From the NCBI GenBank assembly GCA_050250895.1, contig JBFWNU010000009.1, positions 102,488 through 166,487 on the forward strand: a stretch of 64,000 bases of DNA, read 5' to 3'. The position numbers and the translations under genes are program-made. This stretch comes from Vulcanimicrobiota bacterium (GTDB taxonomy: Bacteria; Vulcanimicrobiota; Xenobia; Xenobiales; JADMJV01). Positions 7,306 through 50,527 of this stretch are shown here, piece by piece. Positions within the stretch are counted from its first letter, which is position 1. Each line of letters starts with the position of its first letter. The notes under the pieces were generated by a model, which was not told where the DNA came from, ran no database searches, and worked only from the letters and a program-made list of their open reading frames with translations.

Positions 7306-8112
7306 TTAGTGGAGACTCTCGGCACTCATCAAGATGACTTCCATCTCGTTGGTGATCTCTTCCTGACGCAACTGATTGCGGCGTCGAGCCAGCTTTGCGG
7401 TTTTCTGCTCGAGATGGCGCAGGGCTCCCTCGAGATGCATACTGCGACGGCGGTTCTCGGCCATCAAAGAGTTATAGAATAGTTGCTGCAGCACGGCCAG
7501 GAGATAATGCTCCATCAGCTCCGCAAACGCCTGAGGCGGCGACAAGGTCAGGTCCGGCGGGTAGCCAAAAGATTGGGCCTGCTCGCCCACCGGCAGCGGC
7601 CACACCCGCTCTCTCACCACCTCCAACTCCACCGGATGATGGGTCAGGGCTTCCAGGCGAAAGGTCCCTCGACGGCTCAGACCAGTCAGAGCCTGGCTGA
7701 GGCCGACCAGGGCCCGGGTCACTTCTTCCGCCGTCACCGGACCGGGAAGAAAGGTGGTCAGCGGTCGTCCGGCCAGCCGCTCGGACAGCCTGGTGCCCAC
7801 CACCAGAGCGGGTCCCTCAAAGCCCTCCAAGTTAGCCACCAGGGCGCTGTTGAAATCGCCGCAGAAGCCTCGCTCCGAGCCCATCACCAACAGAACTCGC
7901 ACGGCCTCCTCGGGCCAGGCGTCGAGAGTAGGATTGAAGTGGACCAGGTCTTGAAGGGGAGTTCGAATCGCTTCCACCACCGCCGACTGGTGCTCTAGAT
8001 AGCGAACTAGTCGGCGAGTCTCGATCAAGGCCATGGTCTTGAGGCTGTCGAGGATATCCCCGATCTCGGCCAGACTCGAGAGTCGCTTGCGAAGCTGCTG
8101 TAGGCCGCTCAC
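7306..8112 (-). CDS. atpG: N-type ATPase gamma subunit
   Basis: [18 protein letters not shown]; last gene of the operon. Confidence 0.92.
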
Positions 8113-9566: not shown

Positions 9567-10254
9567 TGGTCGCCTCCACGAAAAGGGCCAGTTCGTCGCG
9601 CAGGTTGGCACCCAGAGAACGGGTGCCCCCCTCGATGCGCAGGCCGGCCAGCAGTTCGAGATCCTGCTCGAAATCGACCGGTCCCAGCAACGAACCAAGT
9701 CGCTTCTGCTGTTCGGGGCTCAACTCGAAGGCGCTGGTCACTCTCACTCTTGCCTTGGAGCGCACGGCCTGCAACACGGGTGCTTCCAGGCTGGCGATGT
9801 CCTCGAGCGCCATCTCCACCAGGCCGGCCTCCACTTCGGGCCGGGCCAAACGAGCCAACAAGCGCGACACGAAGACTGCGCCCTGCTCGAGAGCCTGGGT
9901 CTGATAACCGGCCAGGAGCGACTCCAACTCGCGCAAACCGGCCGCCCTGGCCTTCTCTCGCTCGGCCTCGAGATCCGTCTTGAGCAACTCCTTTTCCTGG
10001 CGCAACTCCTGGCGAAGCTGCTCGTGGGCCTGGTTACGCTCCTGCTCCCAAGCCTTGAGGCGGTCCTCGTACTGCTGGCGCAGGGCCTGGGCCTCGGCCT
10101 TGAGAGCCTCCGCCGTCGCCGCCTCGGCGACCATGGCCGCCCGCCTGCGGTCGATGGACTCGAGCACTGGCTTATAGAACCAATGCTTGAGCAGGGCCAC
10201 CAGAATCAGAAAGTTGATGACCTCCAGCCCGAATGTGGTGGGGTTGAGTTCCAT
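9556..10254 (-). CDS. atpF: N-type ATPase b subunit (long, with delta-like C-terminus)
   Basis: N-terminal TM ([15 protein letters not shown]), coiled coil, extended C-terminus. Confidence 0.9.
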
Positions 10255-10255
10255 A

Positions 10256-10522
10256 TTATCCGTGACCCAGCAGTGCCAGCAGAGGATTTCTAAACAACAC
10301 GATCAGTACCACCACCAGACAATAAATGGCCAGCGATTCGATCATGGCCAGTCCGATAAAAAGAATGCGCGAGATGGACTTCTCGGCCTCGGGTTGTCGC
10401 CCCAGCGCGTCCAGGGCTTTGTAGATGGCCAGCCCCATGGCCGCCGCCGGGCCGAACACCCCGAGCGCGATGGCCACGAGCGCTGTCACCGTCGAGGCGG
10501 TTACGAATTGGGTCATTTCCAT
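10256..10522 (-). CDS. atpE: N-type ATPase c subunit
   Basis: RQPEA loop; GLAMIESLAIY with the conserved Glu. Confidence 0.95.
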   Translation of the reverse strand: MEMTQFVTASTVTALVAIALGVFGPAAAMGLAIYKALDALGRQPEAEKSISRILFIGLAMIESLAIYCLVVVLIVLFRNPLLALLGHG

Positions 10523-11199
10523 CAGTTTGTCTCCTCCAGGTTCTCTTTCTGGGTCTGGACACCGCCAGCGATATAGACCAGAGTCAGCACCCCGAAAATG
10601 TAGGCTTGCACCAGGGCTTCGATGATGTGCAACATCAAAATGGGAATGGGAGCCAGAAAGCCGGCCACCATCAAAATCAGTAGAGCCGTCATCTCCAAAC
10701 TCATGACGTTTCCGAACAGACGCACCGCCAGCGCCAGGGTGCGACTCACTTCCGATATCAGGTGAAACGGCAGCAAGATGGGATTGGGGTGCAGATAGTG
10801 GGATAAGTACTTGCGCATGCCCACCGCCCGAATGCCGAACCAGTGCACCGAGAGAAAGCTGAGTACGGCCAGGGCGGCGGTGACGGACAGATCGCGAGTG
10901 GGGCTGTGCAGCCCCGGAATCAAACCCACCAGATTGGCCACCACCAGGACGATCCAGAGGGTTCCAACGAAGGGCAGGACCTCACGATGTCGCTCGCCCA
11001 CGATGCCCTCGATGGCGCTATCGAGCGAGGCCACCAGACCCTCCACCGCCGCCTCGCGCCCGCCGACGGGCTCCGCTCCAGGCCTGACCAGATAGGCCAG
11101 GCCCACCAGGACGCCCGAGACCAGGTAACTGGTCACCACCGACCCCGTCACCTCGAGCGGTCCTAACTGGTAGGTTGCCTGACCGAGCATCGAGTCCAT
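10522..11199 (-). CDS. atpB: N-type ATPase a subunit
   Basis: SRTLALAVRLFGN, VQAYIF. Confidence 0.94.
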   Translation of the reverse strand: MDSMLGQATYQLGPLEVTGSVVTSYLVSGVLVGLAYLVRPGAEPVGGREAAVEGLVASLDSAIEGIVGERHREVLPFVGTLWIVLVVANLVGLIPGLHSPTRDLSVTAALAVLSFLSVHWFGIRAVGMRKYLSHYLHPNPILLPFHLISEVSRTLALAVRLFGNVMSLEMTALLILMVAGFLAPIPILMLHIIEALVQAYIFGVLTLVYIAGGVQTQKENLEETN

Positions 11200-11466
11200 C
11201 AGACACTCCCCCTGACAAACAGATAGACGTTGATAAAGCCCACTACCACACCGCAAACCAGCCCCATCACCGTGCCAAAAGCAGAGTATTCCGCCTGGTG
11301 GCGGTCATACCAGAGCCCGGCGTAGGCTCCCAACACGATGGGCAGGGCCAACAGCAATCCGAGGGTGCCGAGGTAGCGGGTCTGAGCCAGCAAAGTGGGC
11401 CGCTCACGCTCCTGGCGCTTCATCCGCTGGGCTCTCAAGCCCACCTGTTTCTTGAACTCGCCCAGG

Positions 11467-11474
<8 letters not shown>
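11199..11474 (-). CDS. AtpQ/AtpZ (AtpI-like) N-ATPase accessory membrane protein
   Basis: Two TM helices (LGTLGLLLALPIVLGAYAGLWYD); position between atpC and atpB. Confidence 0.85.
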
Positions 11475-13316
<1,842 letters not shown>

Positions 13317-20662: not shown

Positions 20663-21760
20663 GTGGGCAGTTATGCAGACGATCTTCGGCAGCAGCTCAG
20701 CGAGCTATTGCCGACCAACCGACCGCCCCGGGCCAATCAAGAAGAGCTGACCACGTTCACGCGGCAACTGGCGGCCATGCTCGAGTCGGGCATTCCCCTC
20801 TTTCGAGCCGTCGACTTCATGGCCGATAGCCTCGATGACAACGGGCTACGGCGCGTCTTGCGCGAGGTGGCCTCGGATCTAGCGGTCGGCAAATACTACT
20901 CCAAGGCTCTCTCCAACCATCCTCAGGTCTTCAAAGAGGCCTACTGTGCGGTGGTTCAGACCGGTGAAGCCTCGGGCCAGCTCTCGACCGTGATGGTGCG
21001 CCTGGCCGACCTGATGGAGCGGCAGCTGCGCATGCGCAAAAAGCTCATCTCGGTCTTGACCTACCCGGCCGTGCTCACTTTCGCCTCGGCCGCGAGCATC
21101 GTCTTCTTCATGGTCTTCCTGTTGCCCCAGGTTCAGACCCTCTTTGACGGCCTCAACGTGCGCCTGCCGCTGCCCACCCGCATCGTGCTAGGAGCCCGAG
21201 CCTGGATTATGCCCGGTCTGACCGTGCTGGCCCTGGGGGCGGTGGGTCTGTGGCTGGCCCGGCCCTATCTGCGCAACCGGGCCGACCTGCGCCGTCAAAT
21301 TCACAGGTTCTGGCTCGAGCTACCCATCATCGGCACCCTGGCTCACAAAATGAGCATCGCCGAGGTGCTGGTGGCCTACGTCACCATGCTCGAGGCCGGT
21401 CTGACCGTGGTCGACGGCCTCACCCGAGCCGCCTCGACAGCCGGCAACTCGTGGGTCAAACACCAGATCCTGGCCTCCCGCCAGATGATGTTCGAGGGTG
21501 AAAATCTTTCTGACGCCTTGCGCACGACCGGGGTGGTGCCCGACATGGTCTTGCACCTTCTCACCGCCGGCGAAGAATCCGGTGACGTGCCCCTGATGGT
21601 GCGCCACGCGGCTCATATCTATGAAGAGGAAGTCGAGCTGTCGCTAGAGTCGTTCTCGGCTCTGCTCGAGCCGATCTTGATGGTGGTCATGGGCCTGCTG
21701 GTGGGCTTTATCGTGCTGAGCGCCATCTTGCCCACCGTCGAGCTGATCAAGAGCTTCTGA
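20663..21760 (+). CDS. pilC: Type II secretion F / PilC family protein (standard length)
   Basis: FTRQLAAMLESGIP, GEASGQL, LTYP, GEESG, LLEP. Confidence 0.9.
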   Translation: MGSYADDLRQQLSELLPTNRPPRANQEELTTFTRQLAAMLESGIPLFRAVDFMADSLDDNGLRRVLREVASDLAVGKYYSKALSNHPQVFKEAYCAVVQTGEASGQLSTVMVRLADLMERQLRMRKKLISVLTYPAVLTFASAASIVFFMVFLLPQVQTLFDGLNVRLPLPTRIVLGARAWIMPGLTVLALGAVGLWLARPYLRNRADLRRQIHRFWLELPIIGTLAHKMSIAEVLVAYVTMLEAGLTVVDGLTRAASTAGNSWVKHQILASRQMMFEGENLSDALRTTGVVPDMVLHLLTAGEESGDVPLMVRHAAHIYEEEVELSLESFSALLEPILMVVMGLLVGFIVLSAILPTVELIKSF

Positions 21761-28022: not shown

Positions 28023-28838
28023 ATGGGATTGCCCGCGCTTGAGTATCCCCGCCTGGCGGCCACCGCCCGCCAACACGCCCTGGAATTCGTCGCGGTCTTC
28101 GGCTCCTCGACGAACGCAACTTGCCGCCCGCCGGCCGATTTCGACCTGGCGGTGATGCCGCTGCCAGGCCACTCGCTCGATCGAATCGAGCTCTTTCGGG
28201 ACCTGTCAGACCAACTAGAACGCAGCGACATCGATCTGGTCTGCCTGCCAGGAGCCGACTGGCCGGTGTGTGCTCAGATTGCCCGCACCGGAGCGCCCCT
28301 CTACGAGCACCGTCCCGGTGCCTTCCGAGATTTCGTGCTGGCCAGCTACTGGCGCACGGTCGATAGCGGCATCTGGCGCAGGCGCAAGCGCGAGTATTTA
28401 AAACGATTCCTGGAACGGAGGCTCAGGATGGAGCGAGATCTGATGGTGGAGCGCCTCCTTCGGATGTCTCAGTATCTGGCCGAATTAGAGCTGGTTCTGG
28501 AGCAAGAAGAGAGTGCCTTTCACACAAACCCGCTGCTGCATCGCACCGCCGAGCGGGACATCGAACTGCTGGTAGAGTGCGCCGCCCGCATCAACACCGA
28601 GATCGGCGAGTCGAAAGGCATACCCCCCTCCGACTATTACAGTTCCTTCTTTGCCTTGAAAGGTCTACTCGGAGACGCGAAACTGCGTCGCCTGGCCGAT
28701 AGCGCTCGCCTTCGTGATCTGCTGGTGCATCAGTACGAAAAGGTCGACCTGAAGGAGGTTTACGCCACCGTCCGAGAGACGCTTCCTCTCTGGCGCGACT
28801 ACATCGACAAAATCCAAGAATTCCTCGACACCCCTTGA
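28023..28838 (+). CDS. Fused MNT nucleotidyltransferase - HEPN/DUF86 RNase (MntA-HepT-type toxin-antitoxin in one ORF)
   Basis: GS-x10-DFD in the N-terminal half; R-DLLV-H-Q-Y in the C-terminal half. Confidence 0.8.
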   Translation: MGLPALEYPRLAATARQHALEFVAVFGSSTNATCRPPADFDLAVMPLPGHSLDRIELFRDLSDQLERSDIDLVCLPGADWPVCAQIARTGAPLYEHRPGAFRDFVLASYWRTVDSGIWRRRKREYLKRFLERRLRMERDLMVERLLRMSQYLAELELVLEQEESAFHTNPLLHRTAERDIELLVECAARINTEIGESKGIPPSDYYSSFFALKGLLGDAKLRRLADSARLRDLLVHQYEKVDLKEVYATVRETLPLWRDYIDKIQEFLDTP

Positions 28839-36816: not shown

Positions 36817-37676
36817 TCTCGCCCCTGCGCGTCGAGGTAGAGCAACGAGGCTGGCTGCGTTCGAGCTGGTCCCCGGTGCCTACCGAGCAACTCGACCAGC
36901 TGGTCCACGACGGCTACGCCGGTCGGGTGGCTGTGACGACCGACCATGGCCGAGTCGAGTTCAAGTCGCCCCAAACGGCGGCCCTGCTTTTTGGCGAAGA
37001 GCCTCCGGCCGGCGCCGAGGGCCGGCTGGGCCGGGCCCTGGGCAACCTCGACCGGGCCGGCTGGCGCTTCATGTCGATTCGCAACGACGAGGGCTTCGTG
37101 CAACCGCTGGATGCAGGCCAGGCCTACCAGTATCTGACCGGCAAGCGCAACACCAACCTGCGCTCGGGGGACCGACTGCTGTTACTCAAGCCCGAGCATC
37201 AAGACTTTTCCAACCCAAAGACCTACTTTCATGTGGTCGACCACGAAGAGGTCGGAGCGGTCGACTTCTTTCGGGGCACCGGCGACCCCGAGGTGGTAGC
37301 CCGCCCCGAACTGGCCAGGCAACTCAAGACCCTCGAGGGCTTCGAGGTGGGCATGCGTAGCGCGTCCAAGCGCTATCCGTTTCACCGCGGCGCCCTGCAG
37401 GCCTATCTCGGTTTCTGCCGCGAGAGTGCGGCCGAGTTCTCGTATGGTGGCAACCCCCTCGGCCCCGGCCCCCTTCAGGCCAACCAGCTCGACGAGCTGG
37501 GCGCCCTCGGTCAGCTCGAGCACATGGAGCCGCTAGCTCGTAAAGAGTTCCTCACCAACTTACTGCTGGGGGCCAACCCCAAGCAGGCCCTGGCCAGCCT
37601 GCAACCAGTCGCCCTCGAGCAGTTCGACACCCATCTGGTCATCGACGGCATCTCCATCGACATCAACCAGACCTAG
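36813..37676 (+). CDS. Hypothetical protein with a conserved-looking C-terminal motif
   Basis: Open ORF; ends [22 protein letters not shown]. Confidence 0.7.
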
Positions 37677-39328
37677 CCGGCTTCTACCGAAAAGAGCGAG
37701 ACGTTGGTATGCAGGGTCTTGGCCGTGCCTCCCAGCTGTTGAACCGACAGGTTCGACTGTCTCACGGCGTCGGCCGTTTGCTGGGCCACCTGGCCCAGTT
37801 GACCCATGGCTTCGCTAATCTGCTTCGAGCCGAGCAGCTGGGTCTGCATGCCCTGGTTGACCATGTCGAGCCGAGGCGAGAGGGTCTCTACTTGCTCGAT
37901 GATGGTCGATAACTGCTCGGCCACCTGGCGCACTTCGCCCACTCCGGTCCGCAGCTCTTCCGTGAACTTGTTCATTCCACCCACGGCGCTCGACACCGAC
38001 GACTGAATCTCGAAATTCATCTGCTCGATGTCGAGGGTGGCCAGGGCGGTCTGATCGGCCAAACGGCGAATCTCGACCGCCACTACCCCGAAGCCGCGGC
38101 CGTACTCTCCGGCCTTCTCGGCCTCGATGGCGGCGTTGAGCGAGAGCAGGTTGGTCTGGTCGGCAACCTTGCTGATGGTGGTGGTCATCGTCGTGATGTT
38201 GGCCGCCTTTTCCGAAAGCACGGCCAACTTCGAGGTGATGGTGCCGGCCGCCTCGAGCATGGTGTCCATGCTGGTGCGCATGGCCGCCACCCCTTCGCGG
38301 CTCTGGCTGGCCACCTCGTGGGTCTGGTCAAACACCTGGTCGACCTGGGCGATGGCATCCACCAGTTCCTTGGTCGTGGCCGCGATCTCGCGAGCGCTCG
38401 AGACCACCTCCATGGTGCTGGCCGCCTGCTCTGAGGCCGACGCCTCTTGCTCTTTGGCGGTGGCGGCCAACCGGGTCGAGGCGCTGGCCACCTCGATGCC
38501 CGAGCGCTGAACGGCCAAAATCAGTGCGGCCATGCGATCCAGAGCTTGATTGAGAGAGGCACCCAGGCGACCCATCTCGTCCTGCGAGTCCACCTTCACC
38601 CGGGGGGTAAGGTCGCCGGCGCTGATCTTCTCCAGCACCTCGACGTTGCGGTTGACCCTCTCGCAGATGTTGCGACTGATCACCAGCCCCAGCCCCGAGG
38701 CCAGCACCACGAAGCCCAGGCCCAGCGCGAGCAACCAGCGGGTGCGCTCTTGAATGTGCTGGTCGGATTCCGCCAGCAGGCTGGCGTCGGCGGCCACCCG
38801 CTCGTTAGCCAGCCGCACGATTTCGTCGACGGCCGCGCGGTGCTCGTCATAAATCGGCTTGAGCTTCTCGAGGGCCAGCTTGCGAGCCAGATCCCGGTCG
38901 CCCCGACGCAAGGCGGGGATCACCTCCTGGTCGCGCACCGACAGAAACTCCATGGCCGAACGATAGGAAGTCGTGACCATGGTGTCGCGCAGCAAGCCGG
39001 GCTCGAGGGTCTTCTCCCAATGGGCGTGGCGATCGAGATACTCGACCCGCAACTGCTTGGAGCGCTCTTGCAGGGCCAGAAGCTCGGCCGAGTCGGTCTC
39101 GTTGACCATCTGAAAGACCAGCAGATACGACTCGACTAAATACTCGGGCGGGGGCAAAACGTCGGCCACCACGTCTTTGCCCTCGACGATCCGTTGATAG
39201 AGCGGCCCGTTGACGCGGTAACGCCCCAGCGTCTCCATGGCGATGCTACCGAAGACCAGAAATCCGACTGCGAAGACGGCGATCACCAGGAAAAGCTTCC
39301 AACCCACCGGCAGGTCTCTAAAATTCAT
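37673..39328 (-). CDS. Methyl-accepting chemotaxis protein (WspA-like)
   Basis: Two TMs, [27 protein letters not shown]. Confidence 0.94.
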
Positions 39329-40298
39329 ATTCGCCACTTCCATCCTTTTCCGTAGTGCTGCGGGCAAGCCGGCGCTGCAAAGCCTCCGGAATGGCCCCGA
39401 GCGGCAAGACCTGGCAGGCCGCTCCCAATTCGATAGCTGCCGCCGGCATGCCGAAGATGGCCGAAGTGGCTTCATCCTGGGCGATGGTGTGGCCACCTTG
39501 CTGGCGCAATCGCAGCAGCCCCTGAGCCCCATCCCGGCCCATCCCTGTTAGCAGCACGCCCAGACAGCGGTTCGGCCAGTGCTGGGCCACGCTCTCGAAG
39601 AAGACATCGATGGAAGGACGATGGATGGTGTCGGGCTCGGGCTGATAGGCCAGCGACCCCTCGGGCGTAATCACTAGATGAGCGGGCTGAGCCGCCACCA
39701 GAGCCTGCCCGGCTCGAGGATACTCCCCGCCTTCGGCCACGGCCACCTGTAAAGCGGTTTGGTCGTTGAGCCAAGAGGCCAGACCAGCTGAAAAGCCCGC
39801 ATCGATGTGCTGAACGATTACGATGGCCGCCTCGAATCCGGCCGGGAGTTGGCCCAGTAACTCGGCCAGGGCGGCCGGGCCCCCGGCCGAAGACCCGATG
39901 GCCACCAGGGGGCAGCCGGAGGAACGAGCCGGTGGTTTATCCTCGATTAGCCGGGCCACCGTTTCCAGGCTGGTCAACAACTGAGACTCGGCGCCGGTGG
40001 GGGCCTCGACCGCATCCAGAGCACCCGCGCTCATGGCCTCGAACACGGCCCCTGAAGCCCTCGAGATGGAGGCCGTGGCCACCAAAACAGAGGCCGGAGC
40101 GAGTTGACGCTGTAGTCTCAGGGCGCCTGGAACAGCGACATCGAGAAGGATCAGATCGGCCGGCTCGAACTGGCTCTGGGCCAGAGCCTGCTCACAGTCG
40201 AGAGCCAGCCAGGCGACCTGATGGCGGGTGTGGGCGAGAATGCTCTCGCTGAGGCCGTGGGCCACCGTATAGCTGTGATTGAGAATGCCGATCTTCAA
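39318..40298 (-). CDS. cheB: Chemotaxis methylesterase CheB (WspF-like)
   Basis: REC-like N-terminus; GSSAGGP, VQH, TGMGRDG. Confidence 0.92.
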
Positions 40299-42451
40299 GT
40301 CTCCGGGCCCCCGATCAGGTCGTGGACGGCGCGGATGAAAGCGCCCCGGTCGAAGTCTTCCTTGGCCAGAAAATAGTCGGCGCCCACGTCCAGTCCGAGC
40401 AAGCGGTCCTGGCCTTCTTCCCGCGACGAGACGAGCAGAATGGACAGCCCGGCCAGGGTCGGCTCGCGCCGCACCTTCGTGACCAGCTCGAGTCCGCCCA
40501 GGCGAGGCATCTGGACATCACAGACCAGCAGGTCGAAGACTCCCGAGCAAAGAGCCGTCCAGCCTTCGATGCCGTCACAGGCCACTTCGACCTCGTAGCC
40601 CTCGGCTTCGAGCAGCTTGCGCTCGGTCTGACGGCTCAGCAGCGAGTCATCCACCACCATCACCCGCTTGTGGGTCGAGACGGGCCAGTCTCGGACCGGG
40701 CCGCACTGGAACTCGTCGAGCCTGGCCACCAGCTCCTCGACGTTGAGAATCAGCACCGGGTTGCCATCGTCTAGAATGGCGCCGGCAGTAACGCAGGGAA
40801 AGCTGTCGAGCAACCGATCCAGGGGTTGGAGCACCAGCTCTTGCTGACCCACCAAACGGTCGACCACCAAGCCCACCCGCCTGGGGATGTGGCCGAGCAC
40901 CAGCACCTCGAGTTCGCTGCCCAGCACGCTCGAGCCCCACCCCAGCAACTGGCTGGCCATGGCCAGCGGTAGCATCCCGCCGCTCCAGGGCACGTGGGGC
41001 AGGCCTTGCAGCTCGACCAGGTCACGGCGCTCGAGCCGGAACAACCGCTCGATGCGGCTCAGGGGCAGGGCGAACGGCTCGCCGGCCACTTCGACGATGA
41101 GACATCGAGTCACTGAAAGAGTGAGGGGCAAAAACAGGTGGGTGCGCATGCCTTGCCCTGGCGTGGTGCTCAGCCTGACCCGGCCCCCCAGCTCGTCCAC
41201 CACACTGCGCACGACATCAAGCCCAACCCCCCGCCCCGAGTACTGGTCCGCCTGCTGGCGAGTGGTGAACTTGGGCACGAAGAGAAACTCCAGCAGGTCT
41301 TCGTCACTGAGGCGCTCGGCCGCCTCGGCAGCCACCAATCCCTGGTCTACCAGCCTCGGGCGCAACTGATCGAGGTCGAGGCCGCGTCCATCATCCTCGA
41401 TCTCGATGACCAGCCGGCCGGCCCGATGGGCAGCCCTCAGCACCAGGCGTCCAGAGCCGGGCTTGCCGACCCGCTGGCGGTCCTGGGGCGACTCGATGCC
41501 ATGGTCGACCGAGTTGACCAGCATGTGGTTGAGGGGAGCCTCGATGCGCTCGAGGATATCGCGGTCAACCGGTGTCTCTAGTCCCTCGATAGTGAAGTCT
41601 ACCTGCTTGCCCAGATTGCGGGCCACATCTCGCAGCATGCGGCTAAAGTCGGACACGCCCTCGGAAAAGGGGCACATGCGCGAGCCCATGACCTCCTGGC
41701 GCAAGCGACTCGACAGGTCGAACATGCGTCGGTCATAATTCTCGAGGTCGTGGATGCCGTGGCTGGTCAATCCGTTACAAACTCTGACCAGCCGGTCCAC
41801 GCTTTCGAGGGCCGTGGCCAGCAGCGGCTCGGCCCCCTCCAGCCGAGCACCCAACTCGTGGGTGGCGCTGGTCAACTGAGCCATCTGGCGTTTGAGGGTC
41901 AACATGGTGGAACGAAAGCCGGTCAACCAACCACGCGAGACATGCACTTCGCTGGACAGGCCGATGAGCGCATCCAGCCGCTCGGCCGAGACCCTCAGGC
42001 TGCGGTCACCAACAGCTTTGCGGGGGCCGGGGACCAGTCCGGCCGAGGCCCCGGTCGAGGCCACCGCCGGGGTCTCGGCGACTTCCATCGTGGCCAGAGC
42101 CCTGAGCCTGTCGACCAGGGGCCCGGACTCGACCGGCTGGTCGGCCAGGGCCAGGGCTTTGATGGCGTCTAGCCCCTCGAGCATGGTATCGATGTGGTGG
42201 CTGGCCAGGGCCGTCAGACGGCCCGGCCCTCGCATCAAGACCTCCTCGAGAGCATGGGCCAGCTCGGCGATGGCCTGGATCTCCATCAGGCGCGCTCCGG
42301 CTTTGATCGAGTGGGTGGCCCGCAGCATCGGCTCGAGCGACTCATCGGTCAGACCCGATTTCTCGAGGGCCAACAAGCCTTCGGTCAACACTCCGAGATG
42401 AAAGCGCACCTCGTCTTGAAAAAGTTGGAGTAGTTCGGGGTCGTGACTCAA
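40295..42451 (-). CDS. cheA: Hybrid CheA histidine kinase (WspE-like: Hpt-HATPase-CheW-REC)
   Basis: HSIKAGA, NSVDHGIE, DDGRG, SGRGVGLD, C-terminal VVDDS...D. Confidence 0.93.
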   Translation of the reverse strand: MSHDPELLQLFQDEVRFHLGVLTEGLLALEKSGLTDESLEPMLRATHSIKAGARLMEIQAIAELAHALEEVLMRGPGRLTALASHHIDTMLEGLDAIKALALADQPVESGPLVDRLRALATMEVAETPAVASTGASAGLVPGPRKAVGDRSLRVSAERLDALIGLSSEVHVSRGWLTGFRSTMLTLKRQMAQLTSATHELGARLEGAEPLLATALESVDRLVRVCNGLTSHGIHDLENYDRRMFDLSSRLRQEVMGSRMCPFSEGVSDFSRMLRDVARNLGKQVDFTIEGLETPVDRDILERIEAPLNHMLVNSVDHGIESPQDRQRVGKPGSGRLVLRAAHRAGRLVIEIEDDGRGLDLDQLRPRLVDQGLVAAEAAERLSDEDLLEFLFVPKFTTRQQADQYSGRGVGLDVVRSVVDELGGRVRLSTTPGQGMRTHLFLPLTLSVTRCLIVEVAGEPFALPLSRIERLFRLERRDLVELQGLPHVPWSGGMLPLAMASQLLGWGSSVLGSELEVLVLGHIPRRVGLVVDRLVGQQELVLQPLDRLLDSFPCVTAGAILDDGNPVLILNVEELVARLDEFQCGPVRDWPVSTHKRVMVVDDSLLSRQTERKLLEAEGYEVEVACDGIEGWTALCSGVFDLLVCDVQMPRLGGLELVTKVRREPTLAGLSILLVSSREEGQDRLLGLDVGADYFLAKEDFDRGAFIRAVHDLIGGPET

Positions 42452-42993
42452 CCGGTCACCCCCCCGGCCAGCCCCTCCAGCAGGCTTTCGTGGTCGAGCA
42501 GCGCCGTGATTCTACCTTCGTGCTCGAAGGTTCCCAGGATGAAGCTCAGCATTGGGGTGCTGCCCGCGCCCTCGGCGCTGAGTTCATCCTGGCTCAGGTC
42601 GTGCAGGCCCACGATTCGGGTCACGCCAAAGGCATAGCGCCGCTGCTGCTGGCGCAGCACCAGCAGGCGTTCGGGCGGGCCGCCGGCCTCGATGCCCAGC
42701 AGATGCTCGAGGCAAACGCAAAGCTCGAGCCGGCCTTGAAGGTTGATAACCCCCTGCAACAGCCCGCCACTGCGGTGGGGCAAGCGGCGCACCGGGCGCA
42801 GTTCGACCACCCCCTCGAGGACCCGGCAGGGCAGCGCGAGTTGCTCGTTTCCCAGCCCGAACATCAACACAATCGAGTGACGTCGCTCCAACTGGCGGGC
42901 GGGTTTGGCCAGCAGCTCGCTCCAGGCCTCGAGGTACCCCTGCGGGGGTGGCCGGTCGAGCAAGTGCTCGCCTTGCAAGTTGGGCTGGCTCAC
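42448..42993 (-). CDS. CheW-like adaptor (WspD-like)
   Basis: LLDRPPP..YL..W, LPHR, GVINLQG. Confidence 0.85.
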   Translation of the reverse strand: MSQPNLQGEHLLDRPPPQGYLEAWSELLAKPARQLERRHSIVLMFGLGNEQLALPCRVLEGVVELRPVRRLPHRSGGLLQGVINLQGRLELCVCLEHLLGIEAGGPPERLLVLRQQQRRYAFGVTRIVGLHDLSQDELSAEGAGSTPMLSFILGTFEHEGRITALLDHESLLEGLAGGVTG

Positions 42994-44030
42994 CAGCCGG
43001 CCCGCTCTTTCACTCGCCAGGCTCGCTGGCGCAGCCGCATGGCCACCTGGGTCCGACCGGCCTGCTCTTCATAAAGGGCCAGTTCGAGCATGGCCAGATG
43101 GTCCTCGGGATCGAGATAGATAGCCCGCCGCAGCCCTTCCACTCCGGCTCGGCCAGGGGTTGGCTCGCTCTTCACCAGGACCCGGGCCGATTTGGGCTCG
43201 ACCACCGGCCGAGGCGGGCGCGAGGCCGGCAAGCGGGGTAGCGGCGCAACCGGTTGGGCGCTCAAACGACGAAAGGCGGCCGGACCGGCGGTAGGATGAT
43301 GAACGAACAGCTGCTGGGGTGGCAAGGCCAGTTCGCACAACCCGACGTAAAGCAGGCCATCTTCGTCCAGCAAACTGTGAAGGGCCCGAAAGGCGCGCTC
43401 GCGGGCCGGCTGGTCGAGATAAATCAGCAGATTGCGACAACAGGCCAGATCGTAGGCTCCCGGCACGAAGGCGGTCGGACCGAGCAGGTTGGCCCGGCGC
43501 CAGCGAACAAGCCGAGTCAGCCGGGGAAGGATCTGCCAACCGCCTTCCACGGCCTCGAAATAAGTCTGGCGATAAGCATCTCCGCCGCGAAACGAATAGT
43601 CGCGATAGATCCCGGTTGCGGCCCGGCCCAGGGCGGCCTGGCTAAGGTCGACCGCCTCGATAGTGAAGGCCGCCTCGGGAAAGCTAGCCGCCAGCAGGGC
43701 GATCACCATGGAGTAGGCCTCTTCGCCGCTGGAACAGGGCAGGCTCAGCAAGCGCACCGGGTTGGGCGAAGACAGACGCCGACGGCGGACCTCGTCAGGA
43801 AGGTGCTCGAACAGCTGGGGCTCGCGAAAGAACCAGGTTTCGGGCACCAGAAACTCTTCGGCCAGGCCCAAGAACTCTTGCTCGTCGCCCAGCAGCCTGG
43901 CCACATAGCGCTCGAGCCCGGCCTCGCCGCGACAACGTTCCAGAGCCCGACCCAAAGCCTCGGGATTCAAGACATCCTCGTTCCAGCCGAATCGTGAGGC
44001 CAGCTGAGCGAGCAGCCACTCCTGGCTCAT
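42990..44030 (-). CDS. cheR: CheR methyltransferase with TPR (WspC-like)
   Basis: VPETWFFRE, PCSSGEEAYS, CRNLLIY, RRAIYLDP. Confidence 0.92.
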   Translation of the reverse strand: MSQEWLLAQLASRFGWNEDVLNPEALGRALERCRGEAGLERYVARLLGDEQEFLGLAEEFLVPETWFFREPQLFEHLPDEVRRRRLSSPNPVRLLSLPCSSGEEAYSMVIALLAASFPEAAFTIEAVDLSQAALGRAATGIYRDYSFRGGDAYRQTYFEAVEGGWQILPRLTRLVRWRRANLLGPTAFVPGAYDLACCRNLLIYLDQPARERAFRALHSLLDEDGLLYVGLCELALPPQQLFVHHPTAGPAAFRRLSAQPVAPLPRLPASRPPRPVVEPKSARVLVKSEPTPGRAGVEGLRRAIYLDPEDHLAMLELALYEEQAGRTQVAMRLRQRAWRVKERAGW

Positions 44031-44485
44031 GAGGCCAGGTCCGGATAGAGGATGGCGCGCACCTCATCGGTCAACAGTTCGTCGATGGACAAGAGCTGGG
44101 TTAGCCCCTGGGGGCTGCACTGCAGGCCGCCCAGAAAAGGTGGACCGTCGACTCCGGCAGGCTTGAACTCTGAGGTGTCCTGGCGGGTGGTGCGGGTCAG
44201 ACGTTCGACCATCACGCCGAGCGGCCCGGGCCCGTAGTCGACCAGCAGAATCCGGGTGCTGAGCCACGGCTCGCAAGCCCGCCCCAGGCAGAGTTGACAG
44301 AGATCGATGACGGGCAAGGCCTGACCCAGATAGTCGATAACCCCGGCCACGAACGCGGGAGTCTGGGGGATGGGTCGAGGCGCGATGGCGGGCAACACTC
44401 GCAGGACTCGCGAGGCATCCAGCGCGTAGGCTTCGTCCCCCAGCCCAAACACCAGCAAAAGTCTGCCCCGACGCCAAGCCTCCAT
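44027..44485 (-). CDS. CheW-like adaptor (WspB-like)
   Basis: YALDA..V..VLP, GVIDY.G...PVIDL, LSTRI. Confidence 0.85.
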   Translation of the reverse strand: MEAWRRGRLLLVFGLGDEAYALDASRVLRVLPAIAPRPIPQTPAFVAGVIDYLGQALPVIDLCQLCLGRACEPWLSTRILLVDYGPGPLGVMVERLTRTTRQDTSEFKPAGVDGPPFLGGLQCSPQGLTQLLSIDELLTDEVRAILYPDLAS

Positions 44486-44578
44486 GGTCGATGGTGTTCG
44501 ACGACGACCATCAATTCCTCCAGCCCCGATAGATGCTCCAAAAGAGGATTCCAGTCCGGGTTTGCCAAGACAGCCGGG

Positions 44579-45580
44579 ATGGATCTATCCCGATGCGGAG
44601 TTCTGTCCGGGGGTCGTTTGCTGGCTGTCGATGACAGCGCGTTACACCGCACCAAGTTGACGCGCGAACTCATCGCCCTGGGTCACGAAGTCGAAGGGGC
44701 CGAGAACGGTCGCCAGGCTCTTGATTTGCTGGCTGCCAAGCCGTTCGACCTGATGTTGCTCGATCTGAAAATGCCCGAGATGGACGGCCACGCCGTGCTC
44801 GAAGAGTTGCGCCGACGCGACCTGTTGCGCGAACTGCCGGTGATCGTTATCTCGGGGACCGAAGATGTGGCCGTGGCCGCCCACTGTATCGAGCTTGGCG
44901 CCGAGGACTATCTGACCAAGCCCTTCGACACCATCCTGTTGCGGGCCAGGGTGAACTCGAGCCTGGAAAAAAAACGCCTGCGCGATCTCGAGGCCGAACA
45001 TCTGCGAGAACTGACCGAACTGCGCGGCCATCTCGAAGAGCGCAACGCCGACCTGACCAGGGCCAACGAAATGCTGGCCGAGATGGCTTTCACCGATTCG
45101 CTCACGCGCTTGCCCAACCGGCGCTTCGCCCTGCAGAACCTGGACCAGATGTGGGAACTGTTTCGTCGCCGCCGCCGGCCCTTCTCGTGCGTGTTATGCG
45201 ACGTCGACTATTTCAAGAAGATCAACGATACCTTCGGCCACGACTGGGGCGATCGCGTGCTGATCGGGGTGGCCGAGCGTCTCAAGACGATGGCCCGAGG
45301 GGCTGACATCGTGTGCCGCTTCGGAGGCGAGGAATTTCTGGTGCTCTGCCCCGAGACCGAACTCGAGGGAGCCGTGCAGCTAGCCGAACGCCTGCGCCAG
45401 GGGGTCGAGGCCATCGAATTCAAAGAGCTTGAACGCACCATCACGGCCACTTTCGGAGTCGGCCAGGTGCTGCCCGGCATGGAGCGCGCCGGCCTGGTGC
45501 TCAAAACCGCCGACGACGCCCTCTATCAAGCCAAAGAGGCGGGCCGCAACCGGGTCGGGATCGCGGCGGCCGCCTCGTAG
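44579..45580 (+). CDS. REC-coiled coil-GGDEF diguanylate cyclase (WspR/PleD-like)
   Basis: VDD...LLDLKMP...TKP; D.LT.LPNRR, RGAD I-site, GGEEF. Confidence 0.93.
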   Translation: MDLSRCGVLSGGRLLAVDDSALHRTKLTRELIALGHEVEGAENGRQALDLLAAKPFDLMLLDLKMPEMDGHAVLEELRRRDLLRELPVIVISGTEDVAVAAHCIELGAEDYLTKPFDTILLRARVNSSLEKKRLRDLEAEHLRELTELRGHLEERNADLTRANEMLAEMAFTDSLTRLPNRRFALQNLDQMWELFRRRRRPFSCVLCDVDYFKKINDTFGHDWGDRVLIGVAERLKTMARGADIVCRFGGEEFLVLCPETELEGAVQLAERLRQGVEAIEFKELERTITATFGVGQVLPGMERAGLVLKTADDALYQAKEAGRNRVGIAAAAS

Positions 45581-45590
45581 GTTTTCTTCT

Positions 45591-45758
45591 TCAACCGCGC
45601 CCGGCGGTTGCCATGTAACCCAACAACAGGCCATACAGGCCAGCCGTCCACGGGTTACACATCAGGCCTCAGGTGCTGCCGACCTGACGCGAGAGAAAAC
45701 TCCAGCCCAGGCCGATCAGAAGGCCAACTCCCATACCGATCAAGGTCTTCGATGTCAT
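45591..45758 (-). CDS. Putative small membrane selenoprotein, DUF6132-like (55 aa; Sec at codon 30)
   Basis: GGAGGT RBS; MTSKTLIGMGVGLLIGLGWSFLSRQVGST-UGA-GLMCNPWTAGLYGLLLGYMATAGRG; SECIS-like hairpin downstream of UGA. Confidence 0.75.
45612..45662 (-). promoter_or_regulatory. Candidate bacterial SECIS element
   Basis: TGTAACCC...GGGTTACA lower stem; apical GGCC-TGTAT-GGCC; loop starts 31 nt after UGA. Confidence 0.7.
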
Positions 45759-45880
45759 GGCCACCTCCAAATCTAACATTCTCAATATACCAATTTGGAT
45801 GACCAAGATCAAGCCACGGCCTGCACTGGGTGACCCGCACCTGGCGGGATTCCTGGCCCCTGCGCGGAGAACACCCAGAA

Positions 45881-46315
45881 ATGCGGTGGCCAATCATCCT
45901 CTGTCTACTTTGGATCGTTCAAGGGCCGGTCATGAGTGAGCCCAGCCTGACCGGTCGTTGGGTGACTTCAGACCTGCTCTGGAAGGATCCCGATACTCTC
46001 GAGCCACCGCGCGAACTGGTTCTCGAGCTGAGCGAGGATGGTCAAGCCCGGCTGGACAGCTGCGTCATCTCCCGCGTTTATCGCACCACTGTCGAAGGTT
46101 GCTTCTTGCAAGAGACCCGCAGTGACGAACGCCACCTCGAAGGTCGGTACGAGCTGGTCGATTCGGTGTTGCGTTTCCACTGGACTCGGCCCGACCCTGT
46201 CCTGAGCCCATTTTTCGTTCTCGATGGCAACACTTATTGCTGGCCGACCACCAGCCTGTGGCCGCTCACCGTCGACCTGCCTGCGATGGTCATGGAGTTT
46301 CGTCGGCCGCGTTAG
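45881..46315 (+). CDS. Hypothetical exported protein
   Basis: Signal-peptide-like MRWPIILCLLWIV; GGAGA upstream. Confidence 0.55.
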   Translation: MRWPIILCLLWIVQGPVMSEPSLTGRWVTSDLLWKDPDTLEPPRELVLELSEDGQARLDSCVISRVYRTTVEGCFLQETRSDERHLEGRYELVDSVLRFHWTRPDPVLSPFFVLDGNTYCWPTTSLWPLTVDLPAMVMEFRRPR

Positions 46316-47028
46316 ACGAAGCGAGGAAACATCTGGCGCCAAAGGGGCCAGTCGTGGATGCCCGGATCCTCCCAGACTTCGAGGCGATGACCGATGCCCT
46401 GCCGCTCGAGGATGCCGGCCAGATTGATGGTCGGCCCCAGGCAGAAATCCCAGCGGCCGGCTCCCAGAATGATGTCCATCTCACGGAAGGCGGCCAACAG
46501 CTCGGGGTCGGTGACGTTGGGCATAAAGTGAGGCGGGCAGTTGTAATACACATCGTCGTCATAGTAGCCGTCGACGCACTGACAAATGTCGTAGTCGCCC
46601 GACATGGCGATGACGCGCTTCACCAGGCGGGGGTGTCGAAAGCTGAAGTTGACGGCGTGAAAAGCGCCAAAGCTGGCCCCCGTCACCATCAAGAAAGGGT
46701 TCTGGTTGACGCTCCTGAGATATGGCAAGAACTCGTCGAGCAGATAGGCTTCGAACTGAAGGTGGCGCTCGAGCTGGTCAAACTGGTGAGCCTCGAAGTT
46801 ATACCACGACTCGCGGTCGACCGAGTCGATACAGAACAGCTGAATCCAGCCGTTGGCTAGATGCCGGGCCACCGGCCCCAGCATGCCGAAGTCTTCCCAC
46901 TGATAGAACTTGCCTCCCGAGGTCGGAAAGACCAGCACCGGAGCGCCACCGTGACCGAGGACCAGGTGTTCCATCCGGCGCTCGAGATGTTGGCTCTCGA
47001 GGAAGCCGTAATGACGGGCGTAGCTCAC
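46312..47028 (-). CDS. Putative esterase (alpha/beta hydrolase)
   Basis: GH.G.PVLVFPTSGG, GASFG nucleophile elbow, HDWP.W. Confidence 0.9.
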   Translation of the reverse strand: MSYARHYGFLESQHLERRMEHLVLGHGGAPVLVFPTSGGKFYQWEDFGMLGPVARHLANGWIQLFCIDSVDRESWYNFEAHQFDQLERHLQFEAYLLDEFLPYLRSVNQNPFLMVTGASFGAFHAVNFSFRHPRLVKRVIAMSGDYDICQCVDGYYDDDVYYNCPPHFMPNVTDPELLAAFREMDIILGAGRWDFCLGPTINLAGILERQGIGHRLEVWEDPGIHDWPLWRQMFPRFV

Positions 47029-50000
47029 TTGGTCGAGGTGAGTTCGAGTTCGCTGAATCCATCAGACTCGGGCTGCTCGGCTGCCTCGGGGGCGGGCGTT
47101 GCAGCCGGCTGCGGCGCCTCGAGCCAGTTCATCTTGATGACGGCCCGGCGCAACACGTCGGGATTCGGCTCAAAGAAGATCCAGCGGCTACAGACGAGGT
47201 CGGCCGTGGCCTGATCGTCGGTGGCCAGCAGGGTGAGTTCGCGCAGGGTCGCGCGCAATTGGGTCATGCGAGAGGGGCGCACCTCGAGAAACGCCTCGAT
47301 GGTGGCTCGTCGCACGGCCTCCATCCGCTGTTCATGAATCGAGAGCTCGCGGATCAAGCTCAGCCCCAGGCTGGGATTCTCGCGGATCGTGGCCCGGGCC
47401 AGTTCGATGCGAGCCTGACCTGCGACGGCCACTGAACCGATCTGCTCGAGACGCGCCAGGGCAGCCTCGGTCTGGCCCAAGGCCATTTCGACCTTGAGCA
47501 GGGCGAGGTGGGCTTCGTCCGCTTCGTATCCTTTTAGCCTCTTGAGCGAGCCCGAGGCCTTCTTGAGCAGCTTCTCGACCTCGCCCTTCAGTTGCAGGCG
47601 GTTGGCCAGGCCGGCCGCCAACAGCAGGGCTCCTGATCCGGTCAACTCGAGTGCCGACAGCTGGGACAGGGCCGCAAAGGCGCGACTCAGGCATTCCCTG
47701 GCGTCATCGTGGGCCAGCAACTGGTGATGGGTCGAAGCCATGGCCACCAGCCCCTCGGCCTGCTCGGCAGCCGAGGCCTCTTCTACTGATTCGCCCGCTT
47801 CTTTGAGCAGCTGATGCAGCCGGCGGTCCTCGCCAGCCATGCCGAACTGGGTGGCCAGATTGGCCAGGGTCACCGCCTTCTGGCTGCCGTTGCTCATGGC
47901 GCGGGCAGCGGCTACCGCCTGACTGAGAAGCTTCTGTCCCCACTCGCTATCCCCCAGCCGGGACAAACTGCCGGCCAGGGTGGAAAGAGCGGCGGCCTTG
48001 AGCTGGGGCGCCAGACCGTCGGCTTGCAAGGTGGCCTCGGCGCCGACCTGCAGATACTCGGTCGAGGTCTGTTCGCTGCTCGACATCAGGGCCATCTTCA
48101 TGGTGCCGCGGCAACTATGGTCGATATCGACCGAGTGGGTCTCGACCTGGATGGAGTGATAAGCCAGATCCCGGGCCCGGGCGCGATGGCCGGTCCGGGC
48201 CACCGCTCCGGCCACGAACGACAGGGTTTCGGAGCGCGTGGCAGGGTCTTCAATGGTGAAGGCCATGGCGGCGGCCTCGGAAAAACTGCGACTGGCTTCG
48301 CGGGTCGAGCGCAAACGGTGCAGGCCCACCCCGATGTCGGCCAGGGCTTTGGCCTGAAGTGAACGGTCGTCGAAAGCTCCGGCCAGGGCTGACAGGCGCT
48401 CGTAGGCCTCGAGCGCTTTGTCGGAACGCTCCAGCCGGCTCAGGCAAGAAGAGAGGCCAAAGATGGCCCGCAGGCGCTCGGCCGGCACGTGCACGGTAGC
48501 TGCCGCCTGCACCAGTTGCAGAAAGGCCTCAGGCACCCAGTCGAAGGCTCGCACCTCAGACAGCGCCTCACCCAACTCGACATACCCGCTGACCCGGCCG
48601 GGGTCCCAGGGGCGGGCACTGACCGCCCCCAGCAGGTCGCCGAACGCCTTTTGCGGCGTCTTGGCTCGCGAGAAGACTTTGCGGTCCACGCGGTCCGGAG
48701 CCCGTTCGGGCACCGGCAGATTCTCGCCCAGTTCGGCCAACCCGCTCACCAGGGCGGCCTCACGCAGGTCCCTGGGCGGACCGGCAGGAGCCGCCTTGAG
48801 GCACTCGAGGCCGGCCTTGAAGGCCCGCTTGCGCAGCGGGTCGCCCAGCACCGAGATCCGTCCGAAGCCGAGCCAATAGGTGGCCTGGCGCAGCGGCTCT
48901 TCTTCGAGGGCCAAGAGAGCGAAGGCCTTCTCGGTATAGTTGGGATCGCTGGCGAAGTCGGCCAGGATCCGCAAGACCAGGGGAAGATCGACATCACGAA
49001 ACTGGGGTAGCGGGATGGCCAGAGCTTCGTCAAGGATGCTCTGAGCCAGCTCGTGACGACCCTCTTCCCAGGCCTGCCAGGCCAGCAGCAGAAAGGTCTT
49101 GAAGCGGCATCCTTCGGCGGCGATCATGCGGGCGTTGTCGAGGGCTCGGTCAAAGTCGCCCGAGTCGGCCTGGTGATGAGTGATTACCGCCGTCTGGTTG
49201 GCCCGCATGCGCGGCATGCCCAGGCCGTAGGCCAGGATGCGCGGCAGGTCGCCCTCTTCGAGGGCCGCCTCGAGCCCCCGATGCAGGTCCTCGAGCACCG
49301 ACCTCACCGAGCCCGTGCGGGCCAGTTTAGAGTGGATGTAGGGACCTTCGCACAGCCAGTGCAGGATGGAAAAATCACGCCGCCGCGAGGAGCGGGCCAG
49401 CCGGTCGCAATGATAGCCCAGGTACATCCAGCCATAGATGTCGTTCATCTCTTCCCAAGACGGATAGGTCTCGCGGAAGAAGGCCACCACGCGGCCGTGA
49501 GTGGCCACCAGGTCGCGGCGCAGCAAGTTCGAGATCACGATTTGCATCTGGCGCGAAAACAGGCAAATCTTCTCTCCCTGGTTGCGCAAGATGGGCAGCA
49601 TGGCCTCGAGCAATCCGTGGACCCGAGCGGCCGAAAGGCCTAGAAAATCGGCGATCGAGGCCGGTGCCAGCGGCTCGGGAGCCTCGCTCAGCAGCCCTGC
49701 CATCAGGCAGATATCGGCCTGCATGTCGGCCGGCAGACTGTGCAGTAGCTCGCGCCAGGCCAGGGCCAGGACCAGCGACAACTTGCCCGGCACGATGTCG
49801 CCTTCGGGCAGGCCCTCGCGAACAAAGTGCTGGGCCACCAGGAAGTTGCCCTGACTGCGTTCGAGATAGGTCTCGAGCTTGTCGTTGCTAAGGCCCTCGC
49901 TCTTAAGGTAGTCGCGCAGGTCCTCGCGATTGCGCTCATCGCGCGAATCGAGCGCAATCACCTCGGCGCCGCCGCGGTAGAGGGCGGCCAGATGAGCCCC

Positions 50001-50435
50001 CGGCCGGCAGGCGATGATCACCCGCACGCCCGGAATGGGCCGGTCGAGACCGGCCAAGCCGCCGGCATCCCAGAGCCAGCCGCCGCGTTCAAACGAGTCG
50101 ACCACGATGAGGCGTTCTTTCTTGCCCCCGGGAGGCAGCATCTCTTCGGCCCAGGCCACCGACTCGTGCACGGTCGAAGGCAGGCGTTTGCCCTCGAGGT
50201 CGAGCTGGGCCAGCAGAGCGTGCCAGAAGCCGATACCGACGTTCGTGCCCAGGGTGGGGCGAACCGAGACCCAGAGGCTGTCAGATTCGTCCTTGACCAG
50301 ATCGCGCAGAAATGCGGTCTTGCCCGCGCCTGGTTCTCCGATTAGAACCATCATCGGTGGTCCGTTCTTGCGCCACTGCTCCACTGCGTCACGCAGCCAT
50401 TTGCGACCGACCAGACCGGATTTCTGCTTCGCCAT
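47025..50435 (-). CDS. STAND/NACHT-like P-loop NTPase with long TPR-like helical repeats
   Basis: VGR.WL, GEPGAGKT Walker A, IVVDSFE Walker B, IACR, GNF; Ala/Leu-rich helical repeats. Confidence 0.75.
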   Translation of the reverse strand: MAKQKSGLVGRKWLRDAVEQWRKNGPPMMVLIGEPGAGKTAFLRDLVKDESDSLWVSVRPTLGTNVGIGFWHALLAQLDLEGKRLPSTVHESVAWAEEMLPPGGKKERLIVVDSFERGGWLWDAGGLAGLDRPIPGVRVIIACRPGAHLAALYRGGAEVIALDSRDERNREDLRDYLKSEGLSNDKLETYLERSQGNFLVAQHFVREGLPEGDIVPGKLSLVLALAWRELLHSLPADMQADICLMAGLLSEAPEPLAPASIADFLGLSAARVHGLLEAMLPILRNQGEKICLFSRQMQIVISNLLRRDLVATHGRVVAFFRETYPSWEEMNDIYGWMYLGYHCDRLARSSRRRDFSILHWLCEGPYIHSKLARTGSVRSVLEDLHRGLEAALEEGDLPRILAYGLGMPRMRANQTAVITHHQADSGDFDRALDNARMIAAEGCRFKTFLLLAWQAWEEGRHELAQSILDEALAIPLPQFRDVDLPLVLRILADFASDPNYTEKAFALLALEEEPLRQATYWLGFGRISVLGDPLRKRAFKAGLECLKAAPAGPPRDLREAALVSGLAELGENLPVPERAPDRVDRKVFSRAKTPQKAFGDLLGAVSARPWDPGRVSGYVELGEALSEVRAFDWVPEAFLQLVQAAATVHVPAERLRAIFGLSSCLSRLERSDKALEAYERLSALAGAFDDRSLQAKALADIGVGLHRLRSTREASRSFSEAAAMAFTIEDPATRSETLSFVAGAVARTGHRARARDLAYHSIQVETHSVDIDHSCRGTMKMALMSSSEQTSTEYLQVGAEATLQADGLAPQLKAAALSTLAGSLSRLGDSEWGQKLLSQAVAAARAMSNGSQKAVTLANLATQFGMAGEDRRLHQLLKEAGESVEEASAAEQAEGLVAMASTHHQLLAHDDARECLSRAFAALSQLSALELTGSGALLLAAGLANRLQLKGEVEKLLKKASGSLKRLKGYEADEAHLALLKVEMALGQTEAALARLEQIGSVAVAGQARIELARATIRENPSLGLSLIRELSIHEQRMEAVRRATIEAFLEVRPSRMTQLRATLRELTLLATDDQATADLVCSRWIFFEPNPDVLRRAVIKMNWLEAPQPAATPAPEAAEQPESDGFSELELTSTK

Positions 50436-50527
50436 GGGCCCTCCAGGGAAAGAGTGGGACGGTTCTTCGGGAAAGGCCGACCTAGTCCTCTGCAGGGATC
50501 GCTCGGCAATCTGCAAAGAATCGGCCC

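Follow-up and report, generated by a model that had tools for sequence, protein, structure and literature searches.

A probable unannotated selenoprotein with a U-x3-C redox pair in a 55-residue, two-helix membrane protein

A small gene on the minus strand of the 64-kb stretch of DNA analysed here (the window, 64,000 nucleotides in length) is probably an unannotated selenoprotein gene, the product of which carries a U-x3-C redox pair. An in-frame UGA occupies the position of a cysteine that is conserved in the relatives and is followed by a SECIS-like hairpin, so that the gene probably encodes a selenoprotein. Read in this way, it would be a stand-alone gene for a membrane protein of 55 residues and two helices, in which the UGA at codon 30 is decoded as selenocysteine. 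The features of the locus, all on the minus strand, are the following:

45591..45758, minus strand: frame of 55 codons followed by a final TGA stop, product MTSKTLIGMGVGLLIGLGWSFLSRQVGST-U-GLMCNPWTAGLYGLLLGYMATAGRG (translation with TGA read as U)
45764..45768, minus strand: ribosome-binding site GGAGG, 5 nt 5' of the ATG (read from the sequence)
45784..45812, minus strand: promoter-like site, TTGATC (45812-45807), a 17-nt spacer and TATATT (45789-45784), with TG 5' of the second hexamer (motif scan)
45669..45671, minus strand: in-frame TGA, codon 30, proposed selenocysteine codon (translation; cysteine column of the relatives)
45657..45659, minus strand: TGT, Cys34, the partner cysteine four residues past the UGA (column invariant in 13 of 13 sequences)
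45672..45758, minus strand: 29-aa form expected from gene calling with table 11, helix 1 alone (list of open reading frames; 97% identical to the database protein P0003)
45613..45660, minus strand: SECIS-like hairpin, beginning 8 nt past the UGA (fold)
45633..45637, minus strand: apical loop UGUAU with G then U at loop positions 2-3, starting 31 nt past the UGA (fold, compared with the criteria in the Fig. 2 legend of PMC13188914)

Translation of the small gene starts at an ATG (45758-45756, minus strand), which is separated from GGAGG by a spacer of 5 nt. Codons 1-29 correspond to MTSKTLIGMGVGLLIGLGWSFLSRQVGST and codons 31-55, after the in-frame TGA, to GLMCNPWTAGLYGLLLGYMATAGRG; the second and final TGA is found at 45593-45591 (minus strand). 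The promoter-like site was the single one detected by the scan in the region 45400-46000, for which 50 shuffles gave a mean of 0.1. The GC content of third codon positions was 0.72 upstream and 0.76 downstream of the in-frame TGA, compared with 0.79 in the 34 Pfam-supported genes of the window, so that the part behind the TGA retains the appearance of coding sequence. The strong ribosome-binding site, first helix, in-frame UGA, second helix and hairpin that had been noted when the sequence was read without database searches were all found on the minus strand. The list of open reading frames made with table 11 contains the gene in two separate pieces only, one of 29 aa (within a 74-aa reading frame starting with TTG) and one of 23 aa. 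Truncation by standard annotation, predicted by the same reading, has a counterpart in the protein database: P0003, a protein of 29 aa and 97% identity, ends at the same codon.

The small gene is convergent with a response-regulator/GGDEF gene ending at 45580 and divergent from an unannotated open reading frame of 161 aa (45830-46315, plus strand), which had no Pfam match and contains an internal ATG (45882), from which the N-terminus (MRWPIILCLLWIVQG...) would resemble a signal peptide. The convergent gene, encoding a receiver-GGDEF diguanylate cyclase (44294-45580, plus strand), faces a chemosensory cluster (37673-45580), the minus-strand genes of which encode a methyl-accepting chemotaxis protein (MCP) with a HAMP domain (37673-39532), a CheA-CheW-receiver hybrid kinase (40295-42451), CheW (42448-42993), CheR (42990-44030) and a further CheW (44027-44485). 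Within the cluster, the 762 nt at 39533-40294 have no long open reading frame. We take the composition of this cluster to resemble that of the Wsp system of Pseudomonas, in which chemosensory input drives c-di-GMP output. On the other side of the small gene, a reading frame of 1163 aa (47025-50516, minus strand) had only a weak match to AAA_22 (residues 52-142), its long remainder being rich in alanine and leucine; behind it, in the same orientation, lies a putative esterase gene (46312-47028).

Several other genes of the window have unusual organisation. The ATP synthase genes (7306-13307, minus strand) are arranged in an uncommon order: gamma (7306-8112), alpha (8109-9698), a (10522-11256) and a beta-like subunit (11865-13307), presumably recalling an operon of the N-ATPase type. 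An open reading frame of 271 aa (28023-28838) combines a Polbeta-type nucleotidyltransferase (residues 15-96) with a HepT-like RNase (residues 148-264), which are usually encoded by separate genes as a toxin-antitoxin pair; either the two genes are fused here or the call of the reading frame is an artefact. Another frame, of 1024 aa (909-3983), had T2SSF as its sole Pfam match (two stretches, the best at residues 689-809) and is far longer than the ordinary T2SSF protein of 365 aa encoded at 20663-21760.

Relatives of the read-through protein were searched for with phmmer among 1.84 billion representative proteins, which gave 11 matches at E <= 0.001. Seven of these were small proteins (53-92 aa) aligned across the UGA position. 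P0003, with its 29 aa, aligned with codons 1-29 (97% identity, one of 29 residues different) and shared the terminal codon, and P0007 was a fusion protein of 175 aa, matched by the window protein at E 5.3e-5 over residues 3-50. The matches P0008 (2875 aa) and P0012 (913 aa) were dropped as relatives, their matching stretches being merely 19-20 residues long. A profile search against 5.77 billion proteins returned 13 matches at E <= 0.01, five of them new. The family is thus small, comprising 13 clusters, none of which is informatively named (one is called 'hypothetical protein'); the small relatives that span the TGA position have 49-92 aa. A word-indexed protein search with the read-through protein gave no match, nor did tblastn of P0005 against plasmids. 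Among the matches listed from a scan of genome contigs, three (L001-L003) covered the first hydrophobic helix only (residues 2-35) in unrelated genera and were judged spurious.

When the window protein was aligned with 12 relatives, the UGA column was occupied by cysteine in 10 relatives and by tryptophan in two (P0009 and P0018), in keeping with the proposal of the sequence-only reading that selenocysteine stands here in place of a family cysteine. Cys34, G12, G27, G43 and G47 are invariant, and N35 is present in at least 90% of the sequences. Cys34 had been regarded as an extra cysteine of this particular protein; this does not hold, as the residue is kept in all 12 relatives, and C-x3-C is therefore a signature of the subfamily, which can be written as G-[GS]-[ST]-C-x3-C-N-P-[WY]. 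None of the relatives is annotated with a U residue. P0009 and P0018, which share 32-40% identity with the window protein and between themselves, keep the invariant cysteine, the Asn-Pro and the glycine positions and have tryptophan exactly at the UGA column, in P0018 as the sole tryptophan of the protein. Their metagenomic contigs are short (627 and 1666 bases), and on such contigs a gene caller that changes to code 4 renders TGA as tryptophan. The two tryptophans may therefore be UGA codons translated under code 4, or they may be genuine TGG codons.

Conservation on the two sides of the TGA was assessed with an HMM built from the 12 relatives, the window protein being excluded, which was compared with all six-frame translations of the window, cut at stop codons into 1656 pieces of 15 aa or more. 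First rank went to the piece that the TGA terminates (E 1.4e-8, profile positions 8-35) and second rank to the piece following it in frame (E 3.2e-7, profile positions 38-59); the third had E 0.18. Along the profile the two pieces follow each other in order, with the TGA at the position of the profile cysteine. A loss of conservation downstream of the UGA, named beforehand as an outcome that speaks against a selenoprotein, is thus not the case, since the downstream half reached E 3.2e-7 and rank 2 of 1656.

The hairpin after the UGA has a lower stem of 9 bp, a middle stem of 6 bp with three G-U pairs and an upper stem of 4 bp. In the lower stem (GUGUAACCC/GGGUUACAU) the codons of Cys34-Asn35-Pro36 are paired with those of Gly47-Tyr48-Met49. 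The hairpin lies within the coding frame, and therefore these 48 nt would serve at once as SECIS element and as coding sequence for most of helix 2. The 60 nt 3' of the UGA fold with -30.9 kcal/mol (z = -4.49), a stability reached by none of 200 dinucleotide shuffles and ranking 23rd among all TGA triplets of the window, both strands included (1572); when 21 nt of flanking sequence were added (81 nt), the signal was weaker (z = -1.54, 13 of 200 shuffles as stable). When the 20 codons were resampled with the codon usage of the window, 13 of 2000 synonymous versions were as stable (mean -20.7, sd 3.6, z = -2.81), and the hairpin therefore exceeds what the peptide requires. On the opposite strand the fold is 12 kcal/mol weaker (-18.9 kcal/mol), suggesting that the element belongs to the mRNA of the small gene and not to the transcript of the convergent gene.

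According to the legend of Fig. 2 in PMC13188914, a bacterial SECIS has a loop of 3-9 nt and an upper stem of 4-16 bp, carries a G within the first two nucleotides of the loop, the next one being mostly G or U, lies 16-37 nt from the UGA and has a minimum free energy of -7.5 kcal/mol or lower. The fit to the bacterial SECIS model that had been suggested earlier was borne out with respect to this legend: the loop has 5 nt and the upper stem 4 bp, the distance is 31 nt and the energy -30.9 kcal/mol. These criteria were applied as an approximation on minimum-free-energy folds and not with bSECISearch, and 282 of the 1572 TGA triplets passed, 121 of them with G followed by G or U and five also reaching -30.9 kcal/mol, so the fit to the model is weak evidence when taken alone. 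Rfam, at lenient and gathering thresholds, gave nothing relevant for the hairpin region or the window.

Expression of the gene might proceed as follows. An mRNA would be transcribed from the gene's own promoter and translated from the strong ribosome-binding site. To a ribosome arriving at the UGA, the hairpin, beginning 8 nt further on, would present the UGUAU loop 31 nt downstream, and by the established bacterial mechanism this loop would bind SelB with Sec-tRNA(Sec), leading to the insertion of selenocysteine. A further 25 codons would then be translated up to the second UGA, which has no hairpin behind it.

Among the 34 Pfam-supported genes of the window, 19 end with TGA, nine with TAG and six with TAA. 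General reassignment of TGA (codes 4 or 25) is ruled out by these 19 stops, and, TGA being a normal stop in the window, any recoding must be local. No other convincing read-through candidate was found among the TGA-terminated genes of the window. The 64-kb window contains no tRNAs and no Rfam family, and no SelA, SelB or SelD domain was detected among its 53 open reading frames scanned with Pfam. The selenoprotein reading predicts that the organism decodes selenocysteine.

The main rival explanation is a pseudogene, in which a family member of the ordinary C-x3-C type has had its cysteine codon, TGC or TGT, turned into TGA by mutation, leaving a 29-residue stub and, behind it, similarity that is a remnant not yet decayed. 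In favour of such an origin, TGA is reached from TGC or TGT by one base change, and likewise from TGG if the tryptophan of P0009 is a real TGG; cysteine does stand at this column in 10 of 12 relatives, and the Sec machinery is not seen within the 64-kb window. However, about 15 codons of the gene are one step from a stop codon, and a random strike would therefore have fallen on the conserved cysteine with a chance of roughly 1 in 15. Moreover, independently of the position of the cysteine, the RNA behind the stop is more stable than 1987 of 2000 synonymous recodings, and it places a SECIS-type loop at a permitted distance. A decaying gene is also at odds with P0003, which differs in one of 29 residues and has its stop at the same codon position, and with the intact state of the promoter-like site, the ribosome-binding site and the third-position GC of the downstream part (0.76). 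Taken together, these observations make a pseudogene unlikely, if still worth keeping in mind.

We regard two other explanations as much less probable. The gene might encode a 29-residue membrane peptide of a single helix, the hairpin acting as an intrinsic terminator or an RNA stabiliser, also for the convergent GGDEF gene ending at 45580. The 29-aa form is indeed present in the protein database, the hairpin lies 33 nt beyond the stop of the convergent gene, and the upper part of the hairpin was picked up on the minus strand by a scan for terminators, together with the tail TGTTGTTGGG; this tail, however, has five T in 8 nt and is broken by a G, while on the plus strand the hairpin is not followed by a T-run and the fold is 12 kcal/mol weaker. 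A non-coding terminator also leaves unexplained why the peptide after the stop fits the family profile (E 3.2e-7), collinear with the first half, and this explanation is very improbable. Still less credence is given to read-through without selenium, in which a near-cognate or suppressor tRNA reads the UGA as tryptophan (or cysteine), the hairpin stimulates the process and a 55-residue protein with Trp30 results. Structures downstream of stop codons do promote read-through, and tryptophan is found at this column in P0009 and P0018. However, these two residues, from contigs of 627 and 1666 bases, may be code-4 output for TGA; TGA is the commonest true stop of the window (19 of 34); and the replacement by tryptophan of a cysteine kept in 10 of 12 relatives, beside an invariant partner cysteine, is chemically implausible. 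A selenoprotein is thus the reading followed below.

The sequence-only reading had also pointed to a resemblance to DUF6132 (PF19628). This was borne out indirectly, through relatives, and not by the window protein itself, which had no match to DUF6132 at E <= 10 and so missed the gathering cut-off of 23.2 bits; its Pfam and NCBIfam matches were sub-threshold noise (ECF_trnsprt, E 0.035; Amanitin, E 0.16; XapX, E 0.8). P0007, in contrast, passed the cut-off for DUF6132 with 39.6 bits (E 4.1e-10; positions 6-57 of the 60 in the profile). The scan covered eight relatives, P0014-P0018 being left out, and P0005 and P0011 scored 22.5 and 16.5 bits, while five had no match at E <= 1. Homology to DUF6132 was found transitively, from the window protein to P0007 (E 5.3e-5) and from the same region of P0007 to DUF6132. 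In a feature atlas P0005 was nearest to three DUF6132 clusters (0.90, 0.90 and 0.89), a placement which is weak because its recognition value of 2245 is below the mark of 2300. Judging from these profile matches, the C-x3-C group is a divergent branch of DUF6132 or a sister to it. Proteins of both groups have about 55-60 residues, two glycine-rich hydrophobic helices and a conserved cysteine followed by a motif of the N-P type where helix 2 starts. Unlike DUF6132, the window gene has a UGA in place of the family cysteine, and its subfamily has a second invariant cysteine four residues further on. We know of no function for DUF6132. A search for relevant literature on DUF6132 or PF19628 found none, the sole text match to 'DUF6132' being spurious.

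An AlphaFold2 model, computed from an alignment of 13 sequences, was moderately confident (mean pLDDT 69.9, pTM 0.41) and contained a helix at residues 3-26, a loop at 27-35 and a second helix at 36-52. In this model Sec30 and Cys34 sit in the interhelix loop of nine residues, G-S-T-U-G-L-M-C-N. By fold, the PDB contained no match at E <= 0.001, only generic helical hairpins; by sequence it gave nothing significant, the best match being a single helix of MgtE (E 0.025). Most likely, Sec30 and Cys34 would form a reversible selenenylsulfide, a pair that would be redox-active or bind chalcogens or metals at the surface of the membrane.

Behind its two helices P0007 has a complete thioredoxin domain (E 4.2e-25), which includes the motif WCGPC. 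No other longer fused form was found; this one is represented by one cluster with one member, and the E-value of the fusion search is circular because the profile included the N-terminus of P0007 itself. Given this single fusion, the window protein, too, is likely to work together with thioredoxin. What points to a redox or metal-related function is this fusion together with the general chemistry of selenoproteins. The basic N-termini of the relatives suggest a topology with the N-terminus inside, which would place the loop outside and the thioredoxin domain of P0007 inside.

A 2026 review (PMC13188914) lists 119 bacterial selenoprotein families in its Table 1, in which there is neither a PF19628 entry nor a small two-helix membrane family; the strings PF19628, UxxxC, CxxxU and DUF61 do not occur in the accessible text of the review, nor do DUF6132 and PF19628 in the accessible main text of the BSepDB paper. 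The candidate would join the bacterial selenoproteins that have cysteine homologues and a SECIS within the reading frame, and would not represent a new kind of system. As in known bacterial selenoproteins, the in-frame UGA is at the position of a cysteine of the homologues, selenocysteine and cysteine form a pair of the redox type and a stem-loop follows directly. The U-x3-C spacing differs from that of most motifs listed in Table 1 of the review, which are UxxC or CxxU. The same spacing is found in the printed motif L-U-L-A-x-C of TsoA ('LULAXC motif selenoprotein', NF045695), a likeness at the level of the motif; the NF045695 profile matched neither the window protein (E <= 10) nor eight relatives (E <= 1).

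The candidate also resembles known membrane selenoproteins, in which selenocysteine is located in or beside a membrane segment and is paired with cysteine, and for which the handling of metals or chalcogens has been proposed. Those proteins, however, are much larger and have multiple helices, and no Pfam or NCBIfam match to them was obtained with the window protein and eight relatives. Relays of the DsbD/CcdA type offer a functional analogy only, in that a membrane cysteine pair is combined with a thioredoxin partner or fusion, as in P0007; they differ in having six or more helices instead of two, and the window protein has no sequence match to them. P0007 matched TsoB, a rhodanese/DsbD-like selenoprotein, weakly (E 1.1e-6, 27 bits against a cut-off of 805).

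More tentatively, the gene may represent a new class of minimal membrane selenoproteins of 55 residues, in which two helices of the glycine-zipper type are joined by a loop with a Sec-x3-Cys selenenylsulfide and helix 2 is mostly encoded by the protein's own SECIS hairpin, and which would serve at the membrane surface as a redox or chalcogen/metal relay with thioredoxin. We think this possible, on balance doubtful. If it is true, DUF6132 as a whole would consist of thiol-based membrane redox modules, and the tryptophan forms from metagenomes would be more hidden selenocysteine forms, in lineages that are 32-40% identical.

If the selenoprotein is real, a family would be added to the prokaryotic selenoproteome, and its product would be among the smallest selenoproteins and embedded in the membrane. 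It would also illustrate how short selenoprotein genes are lost from annotation, as the 29-residue stub obtained with table 11 is at the limit of gene callers and the C-terminal half is missed. A switch between selenocysteine and cysteine marks a redox- or metal-active residue, and the gene would thus, if real, provide the first functional handle on DUF6132.
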